Below, piece by piece: positions 28,776 to 40,425 of a stretch of 41,316 nt of DNA (the stretch's first letter is position 1; every line of letters starts with the position of its first letter). The DNA comes from a virus (taxonomy: Duplodnaviria; Heunggongvirae; Uroviricota; Caudoviricetes). The DNA lies in IMG/VR virus record IMGVR_UViG_2681813145_000006. One strand, written 5' to 3'. The notes under the pieces were generated by a model, which worked only from the letters and a program-made list of their open reading frames with translations, did no database searches and was not told where the DNA came from. Made by a program: the position numbers and the translations under genes.

Positions 28776-29132
28776 TTAATGCATTATGGGGTAAATCTTC
28801 ACCCCCAGACGTCCACCAGATACTGGCTGACCACGAACGATATTGATTTCATCAAACTGCTCATCGTCCATTAACACTCCCGCATGCGTCAGCGCATCCA
28901 GCGGTGCTTTCAGGATATTGTCCAGGTCGCGACGACGCTTATCCGGTGGCTCTGCAATCACCTTTATCGCCAGCCTTCCGGACAGGCTTAATTTCAGCCG
29001 CTGCTGGCGAACAATAAGCGCCACAGCCCGGCGATAACGCTTTCCCTCCTCCGAGATAAAATATGTGCTGCCACGGCGTCGCCAGTAAGTGTTCACCGTC
29101 GGCGGGTAAGGTAAAACCAAATCTATGAGCAT
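28776..29132 (-). CDS. rusA: Holliday junction resolvase RusA, 118 aa
   Basis: ATG at 29130-29132 preceded by AGAGGTG; size and position in the nin-like region. Confidence 0.75.
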   Translation of the reverse strand: MLIDLVLPYPPTVNTYWRRRGSTYFISEEGKRYRRAVALIVRQQRLKLSLSGRLAIKVIAEPPDKRRRDLDNILKAPLDALTHAGVLMDDEQFDEINIVRGQPVSGGRLGVKIYPIMH

Positions 29133-29144
29133 CAGTCACCTCTT

Positions 29145-30122
29145 TTACCCAAGCACGCCAGTTGCAAAGGCGTGATCAAGAAAACGAAAAATTAAATCAA
29201 CCTGAGAACCATGCTTTTCTTCGAACGCCAGAGGATCCGCATGAAGCTCGTTGTGATGCTCCCGACACAGCGGTAGCGTGAAAATATCGTGAGATTTTGT
29301 CCCCATTCCGCCCTGACCATGACCAATCAGGTGATGGGGATCGTCGGCTGGCTTACCACAACACGCACACGGCTGTGTCTTCACCCAGCGTGTGTATTTC
29401 TCGTTAACCCAGCGGCGACGTTTAGGTCGTTTCATGAAAGATTCCGGAGACTCAGGATCAACGGCAATGCTGACCACCGTCTTTTCCTGTGGTGGGTTCT
29501 GTTGCTGGTGGGCGTGAGGCAGCGGCGCAAGATTTTTTGTGCGCTGTTTCAGTATGCTGGTGGCGGTCTGCTCTCCCGGTACGATGTCGCTTTCACGGTA
29601 CATTGAGCGGATTTTTTCCGCACGCAACCCCAGCGAACGACGTAATACCGCTTCCGGTAGCGCGTCCGCCACCTGATTGCGGACCGCCCACCAGGATAAT
29701 TCAGCCAGAGATAATTCACGCTCCTGCGTACCGCTTATTGCGTGACCGATGACGTCAATCATCCATGCTGACAGGTTTTGATGAGCAAGTTGCTCGAGTG
29801 ATTCGGATGTCTGGTCACGCAACTGGTTGTCGCAGTGCCAGCACAACACCATTGCGCCGGTACCATAACGGTGAATGACGGTTTCGCTGTGATGATAATC
29901 GCCGTGTGGCCACTGGCAGGATTTAATATGGCGCAACAGCCAGTCAGACAATGCACCAGCACCACCAGCAGCACGAATCACCCGTGCGTTACTGAAAAAC
30001 GGCAGCAATGTTTTGTCTTCCACCAGCGGCTGGCGAACGGCAGGAACGACCCCGGACGGCAGATTACGCATGCTTTTCGGTTCAGGCTCCACCAGCACTC
30101 GAGGGTTATGAAATACTTGCAT
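29145..30122 (-). CDS. DUF968-like protein with C-terminal His/Cys motif, about 326 aa
   Basis: Start set at ATG 30120-30122 (MQVFHNPRV...); the listed ORF extends to 30266 but that stretch is low-complexity and overlaps the upstream gene; C-terminal motif CACCGKP...HHLIGHGQGG...CREHHNELH. Confidence 0.55.
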   Translation of the reverse strand: MQVFHNPRVLVEPEPKSMRNLPSGVVPAVRQPLVEDKTLLPFFSNARVIRAAGGAGALSDWLLRHIKSCQWPHGDYHHSETVIHRYGTGAMVLCWHCDNQLRDQTSESLEQLAHQNLSAWMIDVIGHAISGTQERELSLAELSWWAVRNQVADALPEAVLRRSLGLRAEKIRSMYRESDIVPGEQTATSILKQRTKNLAPLPHAHQQQNPPQEKTVVSIAVDPESPESFMKRPKRRRWVNEKYTRWVKTQPCACCGKPADDPHHLIGHGQGGMGTKSHDIFTLPLCREHHNELHADPLAFEEKHGSQVDLIFRFLDHAFATGVLG

Positions 30123-30195
30123 GGATTCACAGCCCGGCCTAAGGACCACAAGCCCGAGTTCCGGTACCAGAACAGGTCGAAGTAATATCCGCACG

Positions 30196-30468
30196 TTACC
30201 TCCAGATCCGTTGCTGGTATGTGCGGGATGGGCGCGGTGGGCGTTCGGAATAAGGGAGCCTGACATAGATTATCCAGTGACGATAATCGAGGCTGAGGGC
30301 TTTCTTAATCTCGTATCCGCGTCTGCTGTAGTTATGAATTAGCCATTCGGCCTGTTCTTCAGTACATGGTGGGTGTTGGTACCAGTCGGTTTTAAATGCG
30401 TGTGAACGCCGCTCATGCCGGATGGCAAGGTCGGTATCAGAATTGTGAAATTTGGTTTTGTGCGCCAT
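30196..30468 (-). CDS. Hypothetical protein, 90 aa
   Basis: ATG at 30466-30468; lies between the Hok gene and the DUF968 gene. Confidence 0.45.
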   Translation of the reverse strand: MAHKTKFHNSDTDLAIRHERRSHAFKTDWYQHPPCTEEQAEWLIHNYSRRGYEIKKALSLDYRHWIIYVRLPYSERPPRPSRTYQQRIWR

Positions 30469-30540
30469 CTGTTTTCTCTGCTGGCGCAGCAGGTGTCAGG
30501 TGTTCAGGCTGACGTGCGAATTGTAAACCAGAATGCCAGG

Positions 30541-30567
30541 AAAAAACAAAACCCGCCGAAGCGGGTT
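30541..30567 (-). terminator. Rho-independent terminator 3' of the Hok locus
   Basis: Stem ACCCGC/GCGGGT (30551-30556 / 30561-30566), loop CGAA, A-run 30541-30550 gives a U-tract on the minus transcript. Confidence 0.6.
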
Positions 30568-30635
30568 AAGTGCGGGTGCGTTGAGGATGCCTGACTCATC
30601 AGAGGTGGCGAGGGATTTCTCCCTCGCCAGGTCTC

Positions 30636-30791
30636 TTACTCCTCAGGTTCGTAAGCTGTGAAGACAGCGACCTCCGTCTGGCCGGTTCGGATTCGTACCT
30701 CGCAGAGGTCTTTCCTCGTTACCAGTGCCGTCACAATGACGGTTAAACAGATGACGATCAGGGCGATTAACATCGCCTTTTGCTGCTTCAT
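30636..30791 (-). CDS. hokD: Hok/Gef family membrane toxin, 51 aa (HokD/RelF-like)
   Basis: ATG at 30789-30791 preceded by AAGGAGAA; MKQQKAMLIALIVICLTVIVTALVTRKDLCEVRIRTGQTEVAVFTAYEPEE has the Hok pattern; the listed ORF carries a 19-codon in-frame upstream extension. Confidence 0.75.
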   Translation of the reverse strand: MKQQKAMLIALIVICLTVIVTALVTRKDLCEVRIRTGQTEVAVFTAYEPEE

Positions 30792-31028
30792 AGCCTGCTT
30801 CTCCTTGCCTTTCGGCACGTAAGAGGCTAACCTAGATTTGCCGTTCATAGATTGAGCCTCAGATTAATGTTAAGCGTCTTGCCGGACGCGTAATGTTAAC
30901 TGGGGCTTTTCTCTATCTGCCTTTCAGTGTTCATGCCTGAGACAGATAGCCTCAAGCACCCGCAGCCATTCTACTTAACTCACGTCACCTCGCCAATATG
31001 AAATCAATCAGAAAGGTGATCCATAAAA

Positions 31029-31715
31029 TCACTCCTTCTCTTCTTTTCCGTAGTGGAGTTGGCCAATTTTGATAAGAGGGCGTCCCTGAGATTTGCGGTG
31101 TAGATTGGTATCGCGCAGAGAATACACACAGCCACAATATTCCTGCTGATAGAATTTTTCGCGCTTGCTGATTTCAATCATACGGGACGAGCCGCCCTGC
31201 TTGCGCCAGTTATAATCCCAGTACACCATACCCGGATAATGCGCAACAGCTCGCCGCCCACACTCGTTAACCTGCTGCATATTTTTCCAGCGTGAAATGC
31301 CCAGTGAACTGCTGATCACACTGAAACCATTTTCAGCAGCGTACAACGCTGTCCGCTCAAAACGCATGTCAAAACACATGGTACAACGGATCCCCCTCTC
31401 AGGCTCCCATTCCATTCCTTTGGCACGTTCAAACCAGTTGTCGGTGTCGTAATCAGCATCGATAAACGGCACGCCGTGTTGTTCAGCAAAGCGAATATTT
31501 TCATCCTTACGAATTAAATACTCTTTCTGAGGATGAATGTTCGGGTTGTAGAAAAAGATGGTGTAGTCGATTCCCGAGGCCTGAAGCGCCTCCATCACTT
31601 CACCGGAACATGGAGCACAGCAAGAGTGCAGTAGTAGTTTGTTTGCCCCGTTTGGGAGCTCCAATTTAGGCCGTTTGAAATCAGCAATAGTCATAAATAT
31701 TTTTATTGGGGTCAT
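31029..31715 (-). CDS. queH: Epoxyqueuosine reductase QueH-like protein (DUF208), 228 aa
   Basis: Motif [11 protein letters not shown] near the N-terminus and several further conserved Cys; an alternative ATG lies at 31692-31694. Confidence 0.65.
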
Positions 31716-31868
31716 GAAAATAGCACAGAGTGTAGCATCAGAGCAGGGCTATCGGGAATATATGTCTAAATCTGGTAATATCTGGTTTTGACGCAAAGCG
31801 GACAACCACGCTGGCTCTACCCTGCGCCATGAAAATGTCAATTCACATCTGAACTAATGCTCTTTAAT

Positions 31869-32294
31869 CTAGTAACGTCTAAAATACCTAACATTTCCTT
31901 GATAAAATGCCAGTACACGCTGCATAGCTTCGCTCTTCCGGCACTCGCGACAGATTATATTCAGGCGCCTGTCGTAGCGGCGTATTTCGCCGTCTGGTAA
32001 CGACCAGATAAGGTCCGGATCAACCACTGCAGGTTTCTTCACCTTTGCCCTTGAGAGTTTTTTGCGGGCATTTTGCCAGTCCTTACGCGCCTGTTCAGAC
32101 GGGAATAACCCGTAGCCAGAATTGTATACATCGCCACTGGCAACCAGCTCTCTGGCGAGAACACTCATCAGATATCTTGTCGCACCTGTTTTCGCTTCCA
32201 GTTGTCGTAACGTCTCGCGCCCGCTCAGGCGCACGAGTTCAACAACCTGCCTCTTAATTTTTTCCCGCTCTTCTTGTGTAAATACTTTTGCCAC
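31869..32294 (-). CDS. Hypothetical basic protein, 141 aa
   Basis: GTG start at 32292-32294 preceded by AGGAGGG; lies downstream of the replication gene. Confidence 0.45.
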   Translation of the reverse strand: MAKVFTQEEREKIKRQVVELVRLSGRETLRQLEAKTGATRYLMSVLARELVASGDVYNSGYGLFPSEQARKDWQNARKKLSRAKVKKPAVVDPDLIWSLPDGEIRRYDRRLNIICRECRKSEAMQRVLAFYQGNVRYFRRY

Positions 32295-32334
32295 AAGCCC
32301 TCCTGAAAATTACCTCATGACCAGAAATTAACAC

Positions 32335-33405
32335 TTACCCCCTGAAGCCCGGCGGAATTTCGTTATCCGGTTCAGAAATATGATTCACACAACGCTGGTT
32401 GTTCGTGCCGCTTACCGGGAGCAACCAGGGGTTCTCAAAATTCCGGTCCGGTCCAAAAAACGTCGTCGCTCGCTGAACAAATTCCGTTCCCGTTTTCCCG
32501 GTAGCCGCCAGGTATCTTGCGTAACGCCTCACACCATCCAGCATGGCCTCTGGTGGCACCCCCTCGCGTAATCTGGCCTTCCAGGCACTGAAAGCGGATT
32601 TCTTCGGGTTTGCCCCAGCACGCAACGGGTATTCCCGCCAGACCTGTTCGAACACATCCGGATAATCTACTCGTCCCACAGGCTGCCCGGTGTTTTCCGG
32701 GACTACCCGATCGGCTTCCCGCTGAATGGCGGAATCGGCTTCAGGCTGCTGCAGTTGGTGTGATTGCTCCGGCCTTGCGGTCATCACCTGCTGCACAGCG
32801 CCCGAATCGGCTTTCAGCGCATACGCTGAATCGGCTTCCGGTGTCGTGCCTGCTGGCTGACCAGGATTGACGGTCTGAACATCCCCTGCCTGGTTCGTGG
32901 CGTTTTTTACGCCATGGACCATAGTGTTTTGATCTTCTTGATCTGTATCTTTATCTGTATCTTTATCTGTCGTGACTCGTCGTGACATGTGCGTGACATT
33001 TCGTGACGCGCCGTGACAATCGCCATTTTGTTCCTGCTTTCTTTCCCTCTCTCGCTGCGCCCTCTTGCGCTCTGCAGGAGATTTTGCGGTTTGCGAAATA
33101 TTGCCGTTGTCCTCTTTAAGCACCTGGCGTTTTTCCCATCCAGTGATTAAATCACCATCAAGTACCCGCCCCTGCATCGTCTGCAAAATTGAATCAATTA
33201 CCTCTTCTGTCACGTCGAGCGCACTTGCCAAATCTTCTGTCGTGACATCAATGTGACCTCGCGTGACATTTCGTGACGCGCTCACCAGGAGGTGGATATA
33301 CACTGCCATCACTGTTGCAATTGGCTGCCCTGACACCCTGGCAATTGTTCGCCACTTAGGGTCATTTGGCATGTCATGCCATAATCTGAGCCAGGCGTTA
33401 GCCAT
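32335..33405 (-). CDS. Putative replication initiation protein, 356 aa, with iterons inside its coding sequence
   Basis: ATG at 33403-33405 preceded by GAGGTG; two CGTGAC repeat clusters lie within the gene. Confidence 0.5.
   Translation of the reverse strand: MANAWLRLWHDMPNDPKWRTIARVSGQPIATVMAVYIHLLVSASRNVTRGHIDVTTEDLASALDVTEEVIDSILQTMQGRVLDGDLITGWEKRQVLKEDNGNISQTAKSPAERKRAQRERERKQEQNGDCHGASRNVTHMSRRVTTDKDTDKDTDQEDQNTMVHGVKNATNQAGDVQTVNPGQPAGTTPEADSAYALKADSGAVQQVMTARPEQSHQLQQPEADSAIQREADRVVPENTGQPVGRVDYPDVFEQVWREYPLRAGANPKKSAFSAWKARLREGVPPEAMLDGVRRYARYLAATGKTGTEFVQRATTFFGPDRNFENPWLLPVSGTNNQRCVNHISEPDNEIPPGFRG
32941..33017. repeat. Iteron cluster 1: two 12-bp tandem repeats ATCTGTATCTTT followed by five CGTGAC motifs at about 10-bp spacing
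   Basis: CGTGAC at 32971, 32981, 32992, 33002 and 33012. Confidence 0.7.
33241..33281. repeat. Iteron cluster 2: four (C/T)GTGAC motifs at about 10-bp spacing, including a 21-bp exact copy of cluster 1
   Basis: Motifs at 33241, 33252, 33262 and 33272; GCGTGACATTTCGTGACGCGC occurs at 32991-33011 and 33261-33281. Confidence 0.7.
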
Positions 33406-33476
33406 ACTCACCTCTTCTGATACCGAATCTTTTTACTCACGAGTTGCCGGAAGCGATTCGATATGGCTATTGTCAG

Positions 33477-33902
33477 TCAATGTACTGCCACAGCATTTCC
33501 TGCCGGGCCACCACGGTTCATCTGATTGAAACCGGCGATTGCCACTGCGACAAAATCATCAGCGTCTCTCACCAATCGCTCCCGCGTCTCCACCAGCTCC
33601 CGAAAATAAGCTGAACTGTGGCTGCGCATTCTGGCCACCAGCAAAGGTGGCATTGCCTTTTCGATCGCTGGTAACAACGCCTGAATTTTTTCAACTGCAT
33701 CAGGGGTGTCTTTCTCTACCCAGCGGAAAATTTTCTGGGTATTGCGAGCCAAGGCTTCCGGATGGCTGTCGTCATACAGTTCCGGGAACGTCATTCCCAG
33801 CTCGAAATACGCTTTGGTAATTTTCGCAGCCGGTACTTTTTCGCCGTCCGGATGCGCCCAGGCATTCATCGCCATGCGGATGTGTTCATGCTTGATTTTC
33901 AT
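33477..33902 (-). CDS. YdaT-like protein (putative CII-like regulator), 141 aa
   Basis: ATG at 33900-33902 preceded by AGGAG; second gene of the rightward early operon; the name is by size and synteny with Rac ydaS-ydaT. Confidence 0.5.
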   Translation of the reverse strand: MKIKHEHIRMAMNAWAHPDGEKVPAAKITKAYFELGMTFPELYDDSHPEALARNTQKIFRWVEKDTPDAVEKIQALLPAIEKAMPPLLVARMRSHSSAYFRELVETRERLVRDADDFVAVAIAGFNQMNRGGPAGNAVAVH

Positions 33903-33905
33903 GAA

Positions 33906-34166
33906 TCAACTCCTAGAAAGTGGTTGTGTTAACATTTTGGTATCTTCCAGCTCGGGCCAAATATTCATCCAATCAAAAGGCCTTAGTTGCTGACGTGTAA
34001 CTTCACCATTACTGCCTCGCTCAATAAGGACACATAACGATGCCCCTAACACTTGACCTTTACTCAATGCCTTTCTTAGATAACCGATGCTGGTACCACA
34101 CTCGCATGCAAACATACGCTGTTCATCTGACGAAAGAGAATTGAGAAATATTCTTAATTCTTCCAT
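33906..34166 (-). CDS. Cro/DicC-like HTH regulator, 86 aa
   Basis: ATG at 34164-34166 preceded by AAGGAG; divergent from the repressor gene. Confidence 0.55.
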   Translation of the reverse strand: MEELRIFLNSLSSDEQRMFACECGTSIGYLRKALSKGQVLGASLCVLIERGSNGEVTRQQLRPFDWMNIWPELEDTKMLTQPLSRS

Positions 34167-35857: not shown

Positions 35858-35910
35858 TTTCTGGTGACGTTTGGCGGTATCAGTTTTACTCCGTGACTGC
35901 TCTGCCGCCC
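35858..35910 (+). ncRNA. dicF: DicF small RNA, 53 nt (ftsZ-targeting)
   Basis: TTTCTGGTGACGTTTGGCGGTATCAGTTTTACTCCGTGACTGCTCTGCCGCCC followed by TTTTT matches the DicF sequence as I recall it; lies between ydfC-like and dicB-like genes. Confidence 0.8.
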
Positions 35911-40335: not shown

Positions 40336-40425
40336 TGGCGGAGAGAGGGGGATTTGAACCCCCGGTGGAGTTGCCCCCACTCCGGTTTTCGAGACCGGTC
40401 CGTTCAGCCGCTCCGGCATCTCTCC
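40336..40425 (-). tRNA. serU: tRNA-Ser, anticodon CGA (serU-like), 90 nt
   Basis: Minus-strand sequence GGAGAGATGCCGGAGCGGCTGAACGGACCGGTCTCGAAAACCGG...GGTTCAAATCCCCCTCTCTCCGCCA; anticodon loop CUCGAAA; long variable arm; encoded CCA. Confidence 0.9.

Follow-up and report, generated by a model that had tools for sequence, protein, structure and literature searches.

A probably intact hok/mok/sok toxin-antitoxin module among the early-right genes of a lambdoid prophage, a member of the hokD/hokW subfamily

The DNA analysed here, referred to as the window, is the whole 41,316-nt stretch of virus record IMGVR_UViG_2681813145_000006. A complete unit of the hok/sok type was located on its minus strand at positions 30541-30996. 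The hok toxin ORF (30636-30791) encodes a peptide of 51 amino acids, MKQQKAMLIALIVICLTVIVTALVTRKDLCEVRIRTGQTEVAVFTAYEPEE. A preliminary description, made by reading the sequence alone, had recognised a 51-aa Hok-type peptide at this position, and this was borne out by the Pfam model HOK_GEF (PF01848; E = 1.2e-23, 82.9 bits against a cut-off of 22). The ORF also matched PHROG 251, 'MokW-like host killing' (E = 2.8e-33), and a tblastn comparison found the peptide to be 100% identical to HokD/RelF of E. coli K-12. The NCBIfam models for Hok and HokA scored below their curated cut-offs (48.5 versus 73 and 40.2 versus 89) and therefore lend no support to the subfamily naming. For comparison, 133 related units were collected from genomes and viral contigs, and 33 diverse representatives from Escherichia, Shigella, Kluyvera, Citrobacter, Pseudocitrobacter, Pantoea, Erwinia, Kalamiella and Photorhabdus were aligned. 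The hok Shine-Dalgarno sequence AAGGAG (30801-30806), read from the sequence, is kept in this alignment. A TACG motif at the Tyr47 codon (30650-30653) is, by homology to K-12 hokD, a predicted site of TadA A-to-I editing that would change Tyr to Cys. Editing of the corresponding tyrosine codon has been reported for K-12 hokD (PMC5630033), and TACGAA at this codon is invariant in all 33 relatives.

A generic promoter scan of 30450-31100 returned a single sigma-70-like site, which lies upstream of the leader at 30968-30996 on the minus strand and consists of a -35 element TTGGCG (30991-30996), a 17-nt spacer and a -10 element TAGAAT (30968-30973), with 9 of 12 positions matching the consensus. 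The Rfam leader match described below begins 7 nt downstream of this promoter. Taken from the start of that match to the T-run of the terminator, the full-length hok mRNA would comprise approximately 421 nt (30541-30961, minus strand), and its 5' end possibly lies up to 3 nt further upstream, at 30964. The predicted fold of the 421-nt transcript has a free energy of -175.1 kcal/mol, compared to -127.1 +/- 6.7 kcal/mol for shuffled sequences (z = -7.1), and none of 100 shuffles folded as well. Three structures that had been noticed by eye were recovered by the scans and folds, namely an intrinsic terminator at 30541-30567 (AACCCGC-TTCG-GCGGGTT followed by TTGTTTTTT), a 10-bp hairpin directly after the stop codon at 30606-30629 (TGGCGAGGGA-GAAA-TCCCTCGCCA) and a long imperfect inverted repeat near the 5' end, placed at about 30913-30950 and folding as an imperfect hairpin of 13 pairs at 30913-30949 in the minimum-free-energy structure. 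Peptide, leader and trailer features were thus all found where the preliminary description had placed them, and its reading as a Hok-family toxin locus is supported.

In the minimum-free-energy fold of the full-length transcript, the 5' sequence GGGUGCUUGAGG is paired with the 3' sequence CCUCAACGCACCC through 12 base pairs. This helix joins the tac box, the translational activator element at the mRNA 5' end (GGGTGCTTGAGG, 30950-30961), to the fbi box, the fold-back inhibitory element (CCTCAACGCACCC, 30574-30586), whose complementarity to tac runs on to 30571. An exact inverted repeat (9 of 9 positions) connects 30571-30579 with 30956-30964, and the complementarity of the two ends therefore reaches 3 nt further upstream, to 30964. 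Folding of the mRNA 3' end back onto the 5' leader, which the preliminary description had named as a known property of Hok mRNAs, is accordingly predicted at this locus by the fold and supported by covariation in relatives. The tac stem encloses the 5' hairpin (30913-30949). Further along the leader lie the ucb or anti-Shine-Dalgarno box AAGCCCC (30902-30908), nearly invariant in the alignment of 33 relatives, the Sok-target hairpin (30863-30900), identified by folding and in the Rfam alignment and carrying an insertion of approximately 18 nt relative to hokC-type loci and to the Rfam consensus, the invariant mok Shine-Dalgarno sequence GAGG (30857-30860) and the downstream complementary box dcb, AGCCTC (30823-30828). 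In the full-length fold, ucb residues C57-C60 are paired with the mok Shine-Dalgarno sequence, which is thereby hidden. When the 3' end was removed in silico (fold of 30590-30961), tac paired with ucb instead of fbi, and the mok Shine-Dalgarno region GAGGCU paired with AGCCUC of dcb. The closed full-length fold and the open trimmed fold match the scheme described for R1 hok mRNA (PMC9841398). In that system, mutations in the stem of the truncated mRNA were interpreted as opening the RNA to 3' exonucleases (PMC9841398). By analogy, the hairpin at 30606-30629 is probably the counterpart of the terminal stem-loop of truncated R1 mRNA and would protect the 3' end of the processed transcript.

The mok reading frame (30636-30848, minus strand) begins 8 nt downstream of GAGG and reads MNGKSRLASYVPKGKEKQA followed by Hok. 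The mok AUG precedes the hok AUG by 57 nt, which puts the two in the same frame, and the in-frame extension of 19 codons to an ATG at 30846-30848 that had been pointed out earlier gives, together with Hok, an ORF of 70 aa. By its position this extension is a homologue of mok, and it aligns with mok as annotated in phage Rac as well as with mokC of K-12. The upstream frame thus has its own Shine-Dalgarno sequence and stays open through the hok start, an arrangement in which translation of hok would be coupled to that of mok.

On the opposite strand, a sok promoter was assigned at 30805-30833 by homology to sokW and sokC, with a -35 element TTGCCT (30805-30810), a 17-nt spacer and a -10 element TAACCT (30828-30833). 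The generic promoter scan did not find this site because its -10 element matches the consensus at merely 3 of 6 positions. Its sequence is identical to the sokW promoter of Sakai prophage 5 (Sp5), with identity running from the -10 element through the hok AUG, and the -35 core is invariant in the alignment of 33 relatives. In Sp5, the change of TAACCTA to GAGCCGG (primers YO-421/422) abolished the antitoxin effect (PMC8621323). The predicted Sok antisense RNA spans approximately 72 nt (~30840-30911, plus strand) and would consist of a long hairpin that is preceded by a single-stranded 5' tail of 9 nt and followed by a U-tract ending near 30911 (-31.1 kcal/mol, z = -5.4). Its start near 30840 was placed from the -10 spacing and from the geometry of K-12 sokC, which begins 9 nt inside mokC, and its length agrees with that of sokW, a 71-nt RNA complementary to the hokW leader (PMC8621323). 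The candidate gene is cis-encoded over the mok start and appears to have both a promoter and a terminator of its own. An antisense RNA arising from 30790-30900 had been proposed in the preliminary description; a Sok gene is indeed predicted, and its range is better given as ~30840-30911 on the plus strand.

The covariance-model search that had been suggested for hok mRNA and Sok returned Rfam family RF01794, 'sok', at 30786-30961 with 111.9 bits, above the gathering score of 59, and on the minus strand, the hok-sense strand. In a control with K-12, RF01794 matched the mokC/hokC strand (118.3 bits), and the annotated sokC ncRNA is encoded by the other strand. The tac/ucb stem of the hok leader makes up the consensus structure of the model, which stops at the hok AUG. 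A permissive search found no plus-strand Rfam match at E values up to 1. As the match falls on the hok-sense strand, it marks the hok leader and the Sok target, not Sok. A reading of the match as the antitoxin gene itself was rejected on the evidence of the K-12 control and the permissive search.

Conservation of the predicted RNA structure was assessed in the 33 aligned relatives, with the 3' partner slid by 1-3 columns as a control in the tac/fbi test. For the 12 tac/fbi pairs, 86% of cells were able to pair, compared to 32-62% when slid. One of these pairs is U-A in 18 sequences, C-G in 10 and U-G in 3, and in Photorhabdus the two strands of the helix read GGGCGCUUGAGA and UCUCAAGCGCCC. When the whole structure was projected on the relatives, 81% of cells paired versus approximately 40% after sliding. 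In both tests the percentage paired is inflated by the derivation of the structure from the fold of the window itself. Pairs with changes on both sides numbered 51 in the whole structure versus 20-29 when slid, and the covariation score of the observed structure was reached by none of 500 shuffles. The 5' hairpin at 30913-30949 (helix 3) had 87.6% of cells paired and four pairs with double changes, and compensatory changes were also present in the hairpin at 30606-30629 (helices 16-17). In a set of 72 distinct sequences whose Hok is at least 90% identical, entropy was close to zero throughout the hok ORF and the cores of both promoters, and it peaked at mRNA positions 101-130 (window 30832-30861). 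This peak coincides with the mok start and first codons, which are also the Sok 5' tail and adjoining stem. Because Sok and its target are encoded on opposite strands of the same DNA, complementarity of each Sok to its own target is automatic in the variable patch. The variability of the patch may result from relaxed constraint or, in genomes with multiple copies, from selection for copy-specific recognition.

The distance between the mok and hok start codons was counted in 119 distinct units, a biased sample in which the viral matches were the best 80 of 576. A spacing of 57 nt, which places mok in frame with hok, was found in 85 units. Ten units had 58 nt and an out-of-frame Mok of 55-69 aa, and a further ten had 56 nt and a 19-codon Mok whose UGA stop codon overlaps the hok AUG (AUGA). 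Rarer spacings were 53 or 54 nt (five loci of the Erwinia group, from Erwinia and Kalamiella) and 66 nt (a single unit of Photorhabdus khanii). No mok start was recognised in the remaining eight units, which include K-12-type units without a leader. Several of the units with 56-nt and 58-nt spacing encode a Hok peptide identical to that of the window. For R1, what counts was reported to be the translation of mok as far as the hok start, and not the Mok product (PMC9841398). A variable mok frame combined with an identical Hok agrees, at the level of sequence comparison, with this conclusion.

A region of 511 nt containing the locus recurs with 100% identity on the chromosomes of many E. coli strains, at loci that are labelled in RefSeq as 'hokD: type I toxin-antitoxin system toxin HokD' and stand beside 'epoxyqueuosine reductase QueH'. 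Matches were present in 4951 of 5426 complete E. coli genomes, with a median of 2 places per genome and a maximum of 10. In addition, 78 phage records matched, including mEp460, Evi, Tritos and many Stx phages, among them VT2-Sakai (Sp5) with 92.4% identity; in phage records the locus goes by names that include MokW, HokD, 'host killer protein' and gef. An annotated lambdoid prophage runs colinear with the window (98.8% over 28803-33907), the genes following in the order Cro/CI-type regulator, YdaT-family protein, replisome organizer, DUF977, QueH, hok, small ORF, DUF968, RusA and Q. The hok locus lies among the early-right genes, between those for replication and Q, and is co-oriented with this block. 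The QueH gene upstream of hok (Pfam E = 1.1e-65) ends at 31029 and leaves the whole leader intact.

The closest locus with an experimental record is hokW-sokW of Sp5, the Stx2 phage VT2-Sakai of E. coli O157:H7 (Takada et al. 2021, PMC8621323), which belongs to the same subfamily and likewise resides in a lambdoid prophage. The identity of 92.4% extends over the transcription unit. The hok -10 element, tac and fbi are identical to those of the window, and mok is in frame in both, orf74 of Sp5 comprising 213 nt. Both loci also share the insertion of approximately 18 nt in the Sok-target hairpin, which accounts for a Sok of approximately 71 nt in each. HokW differs from the Hok of the window at 4 of 51 residues, all C-terminal (92% identity). 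Mok codons 2-6, which correspond to the Sok 5' tail, differ at many positions (AACGGCAAATC versus CTGAACACATG). Downstream of fbi the Sp5 sequence diverges, such that the terminator hairpin of the window has no aligned counterpart there, and the neighbouring genes are other small ORFs instead of queH.

The hokD (relF) locus of the cryptic Qin prophage of K-12, in contrast, is truncated. It encodes a Hok peptide identical to that of the window, shows 97.7% DNA identity over a stretch that begins 14 nt ahead of the hok AUG and includes the terminator (30542-30805), and is placed in the same way with respect to the DUF968 gene (ydfU), a Q-like gene and the ydfA-dicF-dicB block. Homology is confined to 30542-30805 because relBE replaces the leader in K-12, and the hok promoter, tac, ucb, mok and sok, all present in the window, are missing. 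The earlier remark that the toxin of the window is adjacent to a queH-like gene rather than a relBE pair is therefore correct, as both the Pfam match to QueH and the K-12 alignment attest. To judge from this alignment, the window copy is the complete form of a locus that is kept in K-12 merely as a stump.

The hok/mok/sok (parB) locus of plasmid R1 has the same elements in the same order as the window (promoter, tac, 5' hairpin, ucb, Sok target, mok Shine-Dalgarno and AUG, dcb, hok Shine-Dalgarno and ORF, protective hairpin, fbi and terminator), and the same two conformations are predicted. The Hok peptides are 42% identical, and Sok is longer in the window than in R1. An IncFII plasmid locus encodes a Hok peptide that matches what we take to be the R1 Hok sequence. 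This plasmid locus was rejected as R1 itself and is instead an R1-type variant, since its mok spacing is 57 nt and that of R1 is 58 nt (PMC9841398); the R1-type plasmid locus matches RF01794 with 87.2 bits. In R1, mok (AUG at 116, hok AUG at 174) is out of frame and encodes 70 aa (PMC9841398), unlike the in-frame mok of the window. As the replicon is a prophage and not a plasmid, the plasmid-stabilising role of the R1 locus need not apply here. The chromosomal hokC/mokC/sokC (gef) locus of K-12, which does not lie in a prophage, resembles the window in having an in-frame mok of 19 codons located 57 nt upstream and sharing the hok stop codon, in its tac box and in the start of sokC inside mokC on the opposite strand. 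Its Hok is approximately 82% identical to that of the window, and the hairpin insertion is absent. A K-12-like hokC representative had no fbi box within 2 mismatches, and its sequence diverges after the hok stop; in K-12, IS186A ends approximately 20 nt beyond the hokC stop.

Every sequence-level feature defining the hok/sok family that could be tested was found at the locus, and the HokD/HokW-like peptide, together with the position upstream of Q in the early-right region of a lambdoid prophage, agrees with membership of the hokD/hokW subfamily. The locus is thus, with high confidence, an intact hok/mok/sok type I toxin-antitoxin module of this subfamily, carried among the early-right genes of a Qin/Rac-like lambdoid prophage of E. 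coli. Alternatively, the window copy might be an inactive relic, as several hok loci on the K-12 chromosome are; it would then be at most transcribed and unable to kill or to be regulated. In favour of this, K-12 hokD has lost its entire leader, and a mok start could not be recognised in eight of the 119 units. Such a fate is nevertheless improbable for a locus in which both promoters, tac, ucb, the mok Shine-Dalgarno sequence and AUG, dcb, the hok Shine-Dalgarno sequence and ORF, the 3' hairpin, fbi and the terminator are all intact and in which the ORF and promoter cores are almost invariant in 72 close relatives. Furthermore, the identical HokD peptide of K-12 was toxic in a preprint assay (10.1101/2025.08.07.668861) and the 92%-identical hokW-sokW is functional (PMC8621323). 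Near-identical loci thus already answer both checks named in the preliminary description, for an antisense transcript and for toxicity. It is similarly doubtful that the real gene is the single 70-aa ORF (30636-30848), with Hok made solely in a long form and no separate coupling of mok and hok. The two AUG codons are in frame in the window, in Sp5 and in the 85 units with 57-nt spacing, and phage records do annotate the long ORF ('gef homolog orf74', 'MokW protein'). Yet hok has a separate, strong and conserved Shine-Dalgarno sequence (AAGGAG) ahead of its AUG, and mok is out of frame in close relatives with identical Hok and a spacing of 58 or 56 nt, which indicates that the N-terminal extension is dispensable. 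The 51-aa hokW ORF alone is toxic (pBAD24-hokW, whose primer YO-357 begins at ATGAAGCAG; PMC8621323), and the R1 result, in which translation to the hok start and not the Mok product counts (PMC9841398), points in the same direction.

Two further readings concern the RNAs and are both extremely improbable. The name 'sok antitoxin' of RF01794 and its strong score on the minus strand would suggest an antitoxin RNA encoded at 30786-30961 on the same strand as hok; against this stand the opposite orientation of K-12 sokC relative to the RF01794-matched strand, the nature of the model as a hok leader and the lack of a plus-strand match in the permissive search. At the other end of the unit, the trailer (30546-30627) matched RF01394, isrK, weakly (27.8 bits, with E = 1e-4 when 141 nt were searched), as might be expected if it were an independent IsrK-like Hfq-binding small RNA and not the hok 3' UTR. 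This match falls far short of the gathering score of 50, nothing but a hairpin and a terminator is aligned, the promoter scan revealed no promoter-like site between the hok stop and the trailer, and the region contains fbi, which covaries with the mRNA 5' end.

For the intact hok/mok/sok module, a model of regulation can be built on the sequence elements, the two predicted conformations, the covariation in relatives and the fact that both peptide and sok promoter are identical to those of tested loci. The 3' processing, the need for RNase III and Hfq, the instability of Sok and the membrane as target of Hok are adopted from R1 hok/sok and Sp5 hokW-sokW and would hold here by analogy. The promoter at 30968-30996 would be constitutive and give rise to a stable mRNA of approximately 421 nt in which 5' tac is paired with 3' fbi. 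In this closed form, ucb would cover the mok Shine-Dalgarno sequence and thus permit neither translation nor binding of Sok. Slow 3' exonucleolytic trimming to the hairpin at 30606-30629 would remove fbi, whereupon tac would pair with ucb and the mok Shine-Dalgarno sequence would move to dcb. Ribosomes could then start at the mok AUG (30846-30848), and their passage through the hok initiation region would let Hok be made. Short-lived Sok (~30840-30911, plus strand) would pair with the mok start region of the trimmed mRNA, block translation and lead to cleavage by RNase III. Once Sok falls, Hok (51 aa, and possibly also the in-frame form of 70 aa) would insert in the inner membrane and depolarise it.

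The role of the module may be to aid prophage-induced lysis and phage release, as for hokW-sokW, and/or to stabilise the prophage, and is less certain than its identity. In Sp5, hokW is toxic and sokW is an antisense antitoxin that depends on RNase III and Hfq; after mitomycin C treatment, sokW vanishes and HokW appears in a RecA-dependent manner, growth arrest is advanced by approximately 40 minutes by hokW-sokW, and its deletion halves phage release (PMC8621323). In earlier work, the chromosomal hokA, hokB and hokC loci did not mediate post-segregational killing (cited in 10.1101/2025.08.07.668861), and the role of the window locus is uncertain for this reason. Because the locus is co-oriented with the early-right block, read-through upon induction would run head-on into the sok promoter, and we infer that this could contribute to the loss of Sok. 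With mok in frame, each ribosome starting at the mok AUG would make an extended, positively charged Hok of 70 aa. It is conceivable, albeit rather unlikely, that this isoform acts as a further functional toxin whose potency or timing differs from that of the 51-aa form, that the three spacings tune the toxin dose and, separately, that the hypervariable Sok 5' tail lets each of several copies in one genome answer only to its own antitoxin. If so, the 57-nt fusion, the long out-of-frame Mok of 58-nt units and the 19-codon Mok of 56-nt units would set the toxin delivery of each copy.

The locus is already known and an ordinary member of one of the best-studied antisense-RNA systems, given that identical DNA has been annotated and a 92%-identical locus characterised. 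Its value for discovery is accordingly small, and its practical value lies in annotation. Genome pipelines leave Sok, mok and the elements of the RNA switch unannotated, and coordinates for all of these are now available; annotators are also cautioned that an Rfam 'sok' match marks the hok leader strand. The window copy displays the complete hokD-type unit that is absent from K-12. Within the family, the variable mok frame and the hypervariable Sok tail provide inexpensive comparative support for the view that mok translation, not the Mok peptide, matters.

The window lies in a prophage that is Qin-like because its ydfA-dicF-dicB block is 95.8% identical to that of K-12 Qin, and the DicF small RNA in this block (35859-35910, + strand) gives a full-length Rfam match of 76.7 bits. 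Toward the two ends of the window, a full-length match to IS009 RNA (RF02111; 41-239, - strand; 224.5 bits) and a tRNA-Ser gene with anticodon CGA (40336-40425, - strand) were detected; the latter is close to the window end, and the boundary or attachment site of the prophage may be there or close by. Directly upstream of hok, within the prophage early region, a full-length epoxyqueuosine reductase gene, queH (31029-31715, - strand; Pfam E = 1.1e-65), is assigned to PHROG 3217, a family of unknown function. Among lambdoid phages, QueH is an unusual cargo; no further queuosine genes were noticed in its vicinity.

The hok trailer gives a sub-threshold Rfam match to the small RNA isrK, which on the - strand (30546-30627) spans the hok 3' hairpin, the fbi element and the terminator. 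At 27.8 bits, this match falls short of the gathering score of 50, and isrK identity was rejected in favor of what looks like a generic two-hairpin resemblance. An ORF of 59 aa (30415-30594, + strand) occupies the strand opposite the hok 3' UTR and terminator; it is labeled 'hypothetical protein' in RefSeq, and a similar ORF is named 'mobile element protein' in some phage records. The 59-aa ORF is probably a false gene prediction that covers the structured trailer. Within the coding region, the sequence TACGAA at Hok Tyr47 (30648-30653, - strand) shows no change across 33 diverse relatives, not even at the synonymous third position. The motif edited by TadA is TACG. For K-12 hokD, Tyr to Cys editing was reported at the residue that corresponds to Tyr47 (PMC5630033).

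E. coli-like hok sequences also appeared in tiny contigs or in records of unrelated hosts, namely Acinetobacter idrijaensis (L021, a 275-nt contig), Xanthomonas pisi (L026, a 431-nt contig), a Candidatus Scatousia MAG (L059) and Actinobacillus phage vB_Apl-pPE4 (H28). With 91-96% DNA identity and 96-100% peptide identity to the window, these copies probably reflect E. coli contamination or host mis-assignment in the assemblies.

The Rfam search placed RF01794 ('sok antitoxin') on the hok/mok sense strand (30786-30961, - strand). The K-12 locus used as a control behaved in the same way, the model matching the mokC/hokC strand (L140, 402-554) opposite the annotated sokC. Automatic annotation from RF01794 would thus put 'sok' on the wrong strand.

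The distance between the mok and hok AUG codons (30789-30848 in the window) differs between otherwise near-identical loci, including L002, L009, L014, L139 and L101. A spacing of 57 nt keeps mok in frame with hok, 58 nt yields a long out-of-frame Mok, and 56 nt yields a 19-codon Mok whose UGA stop overlaps the hok AUG (AUGA). The 57-nt in-frame arrangement is also found in the R1-type plasmid hok/sok locus of pMTY1886_IncFII (L005, 433-760), and frame variation is therefore present in the plasmid lineage too. The Hok peptide of this plasmid matches the R1 Hok sequence used as the query, whereas the R1 leader is longer (numbering of PMC9841398). Among 72 close relatives, a hypervariable patch (30832-30861) reaches an entropy of 0.82 per column, compared to approximately 0 in the hok ORF. 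The patch coincides with mok codons 1-6 and the 5' tail of the predicted Sok, and it may serve as a copy-specificity determinant.
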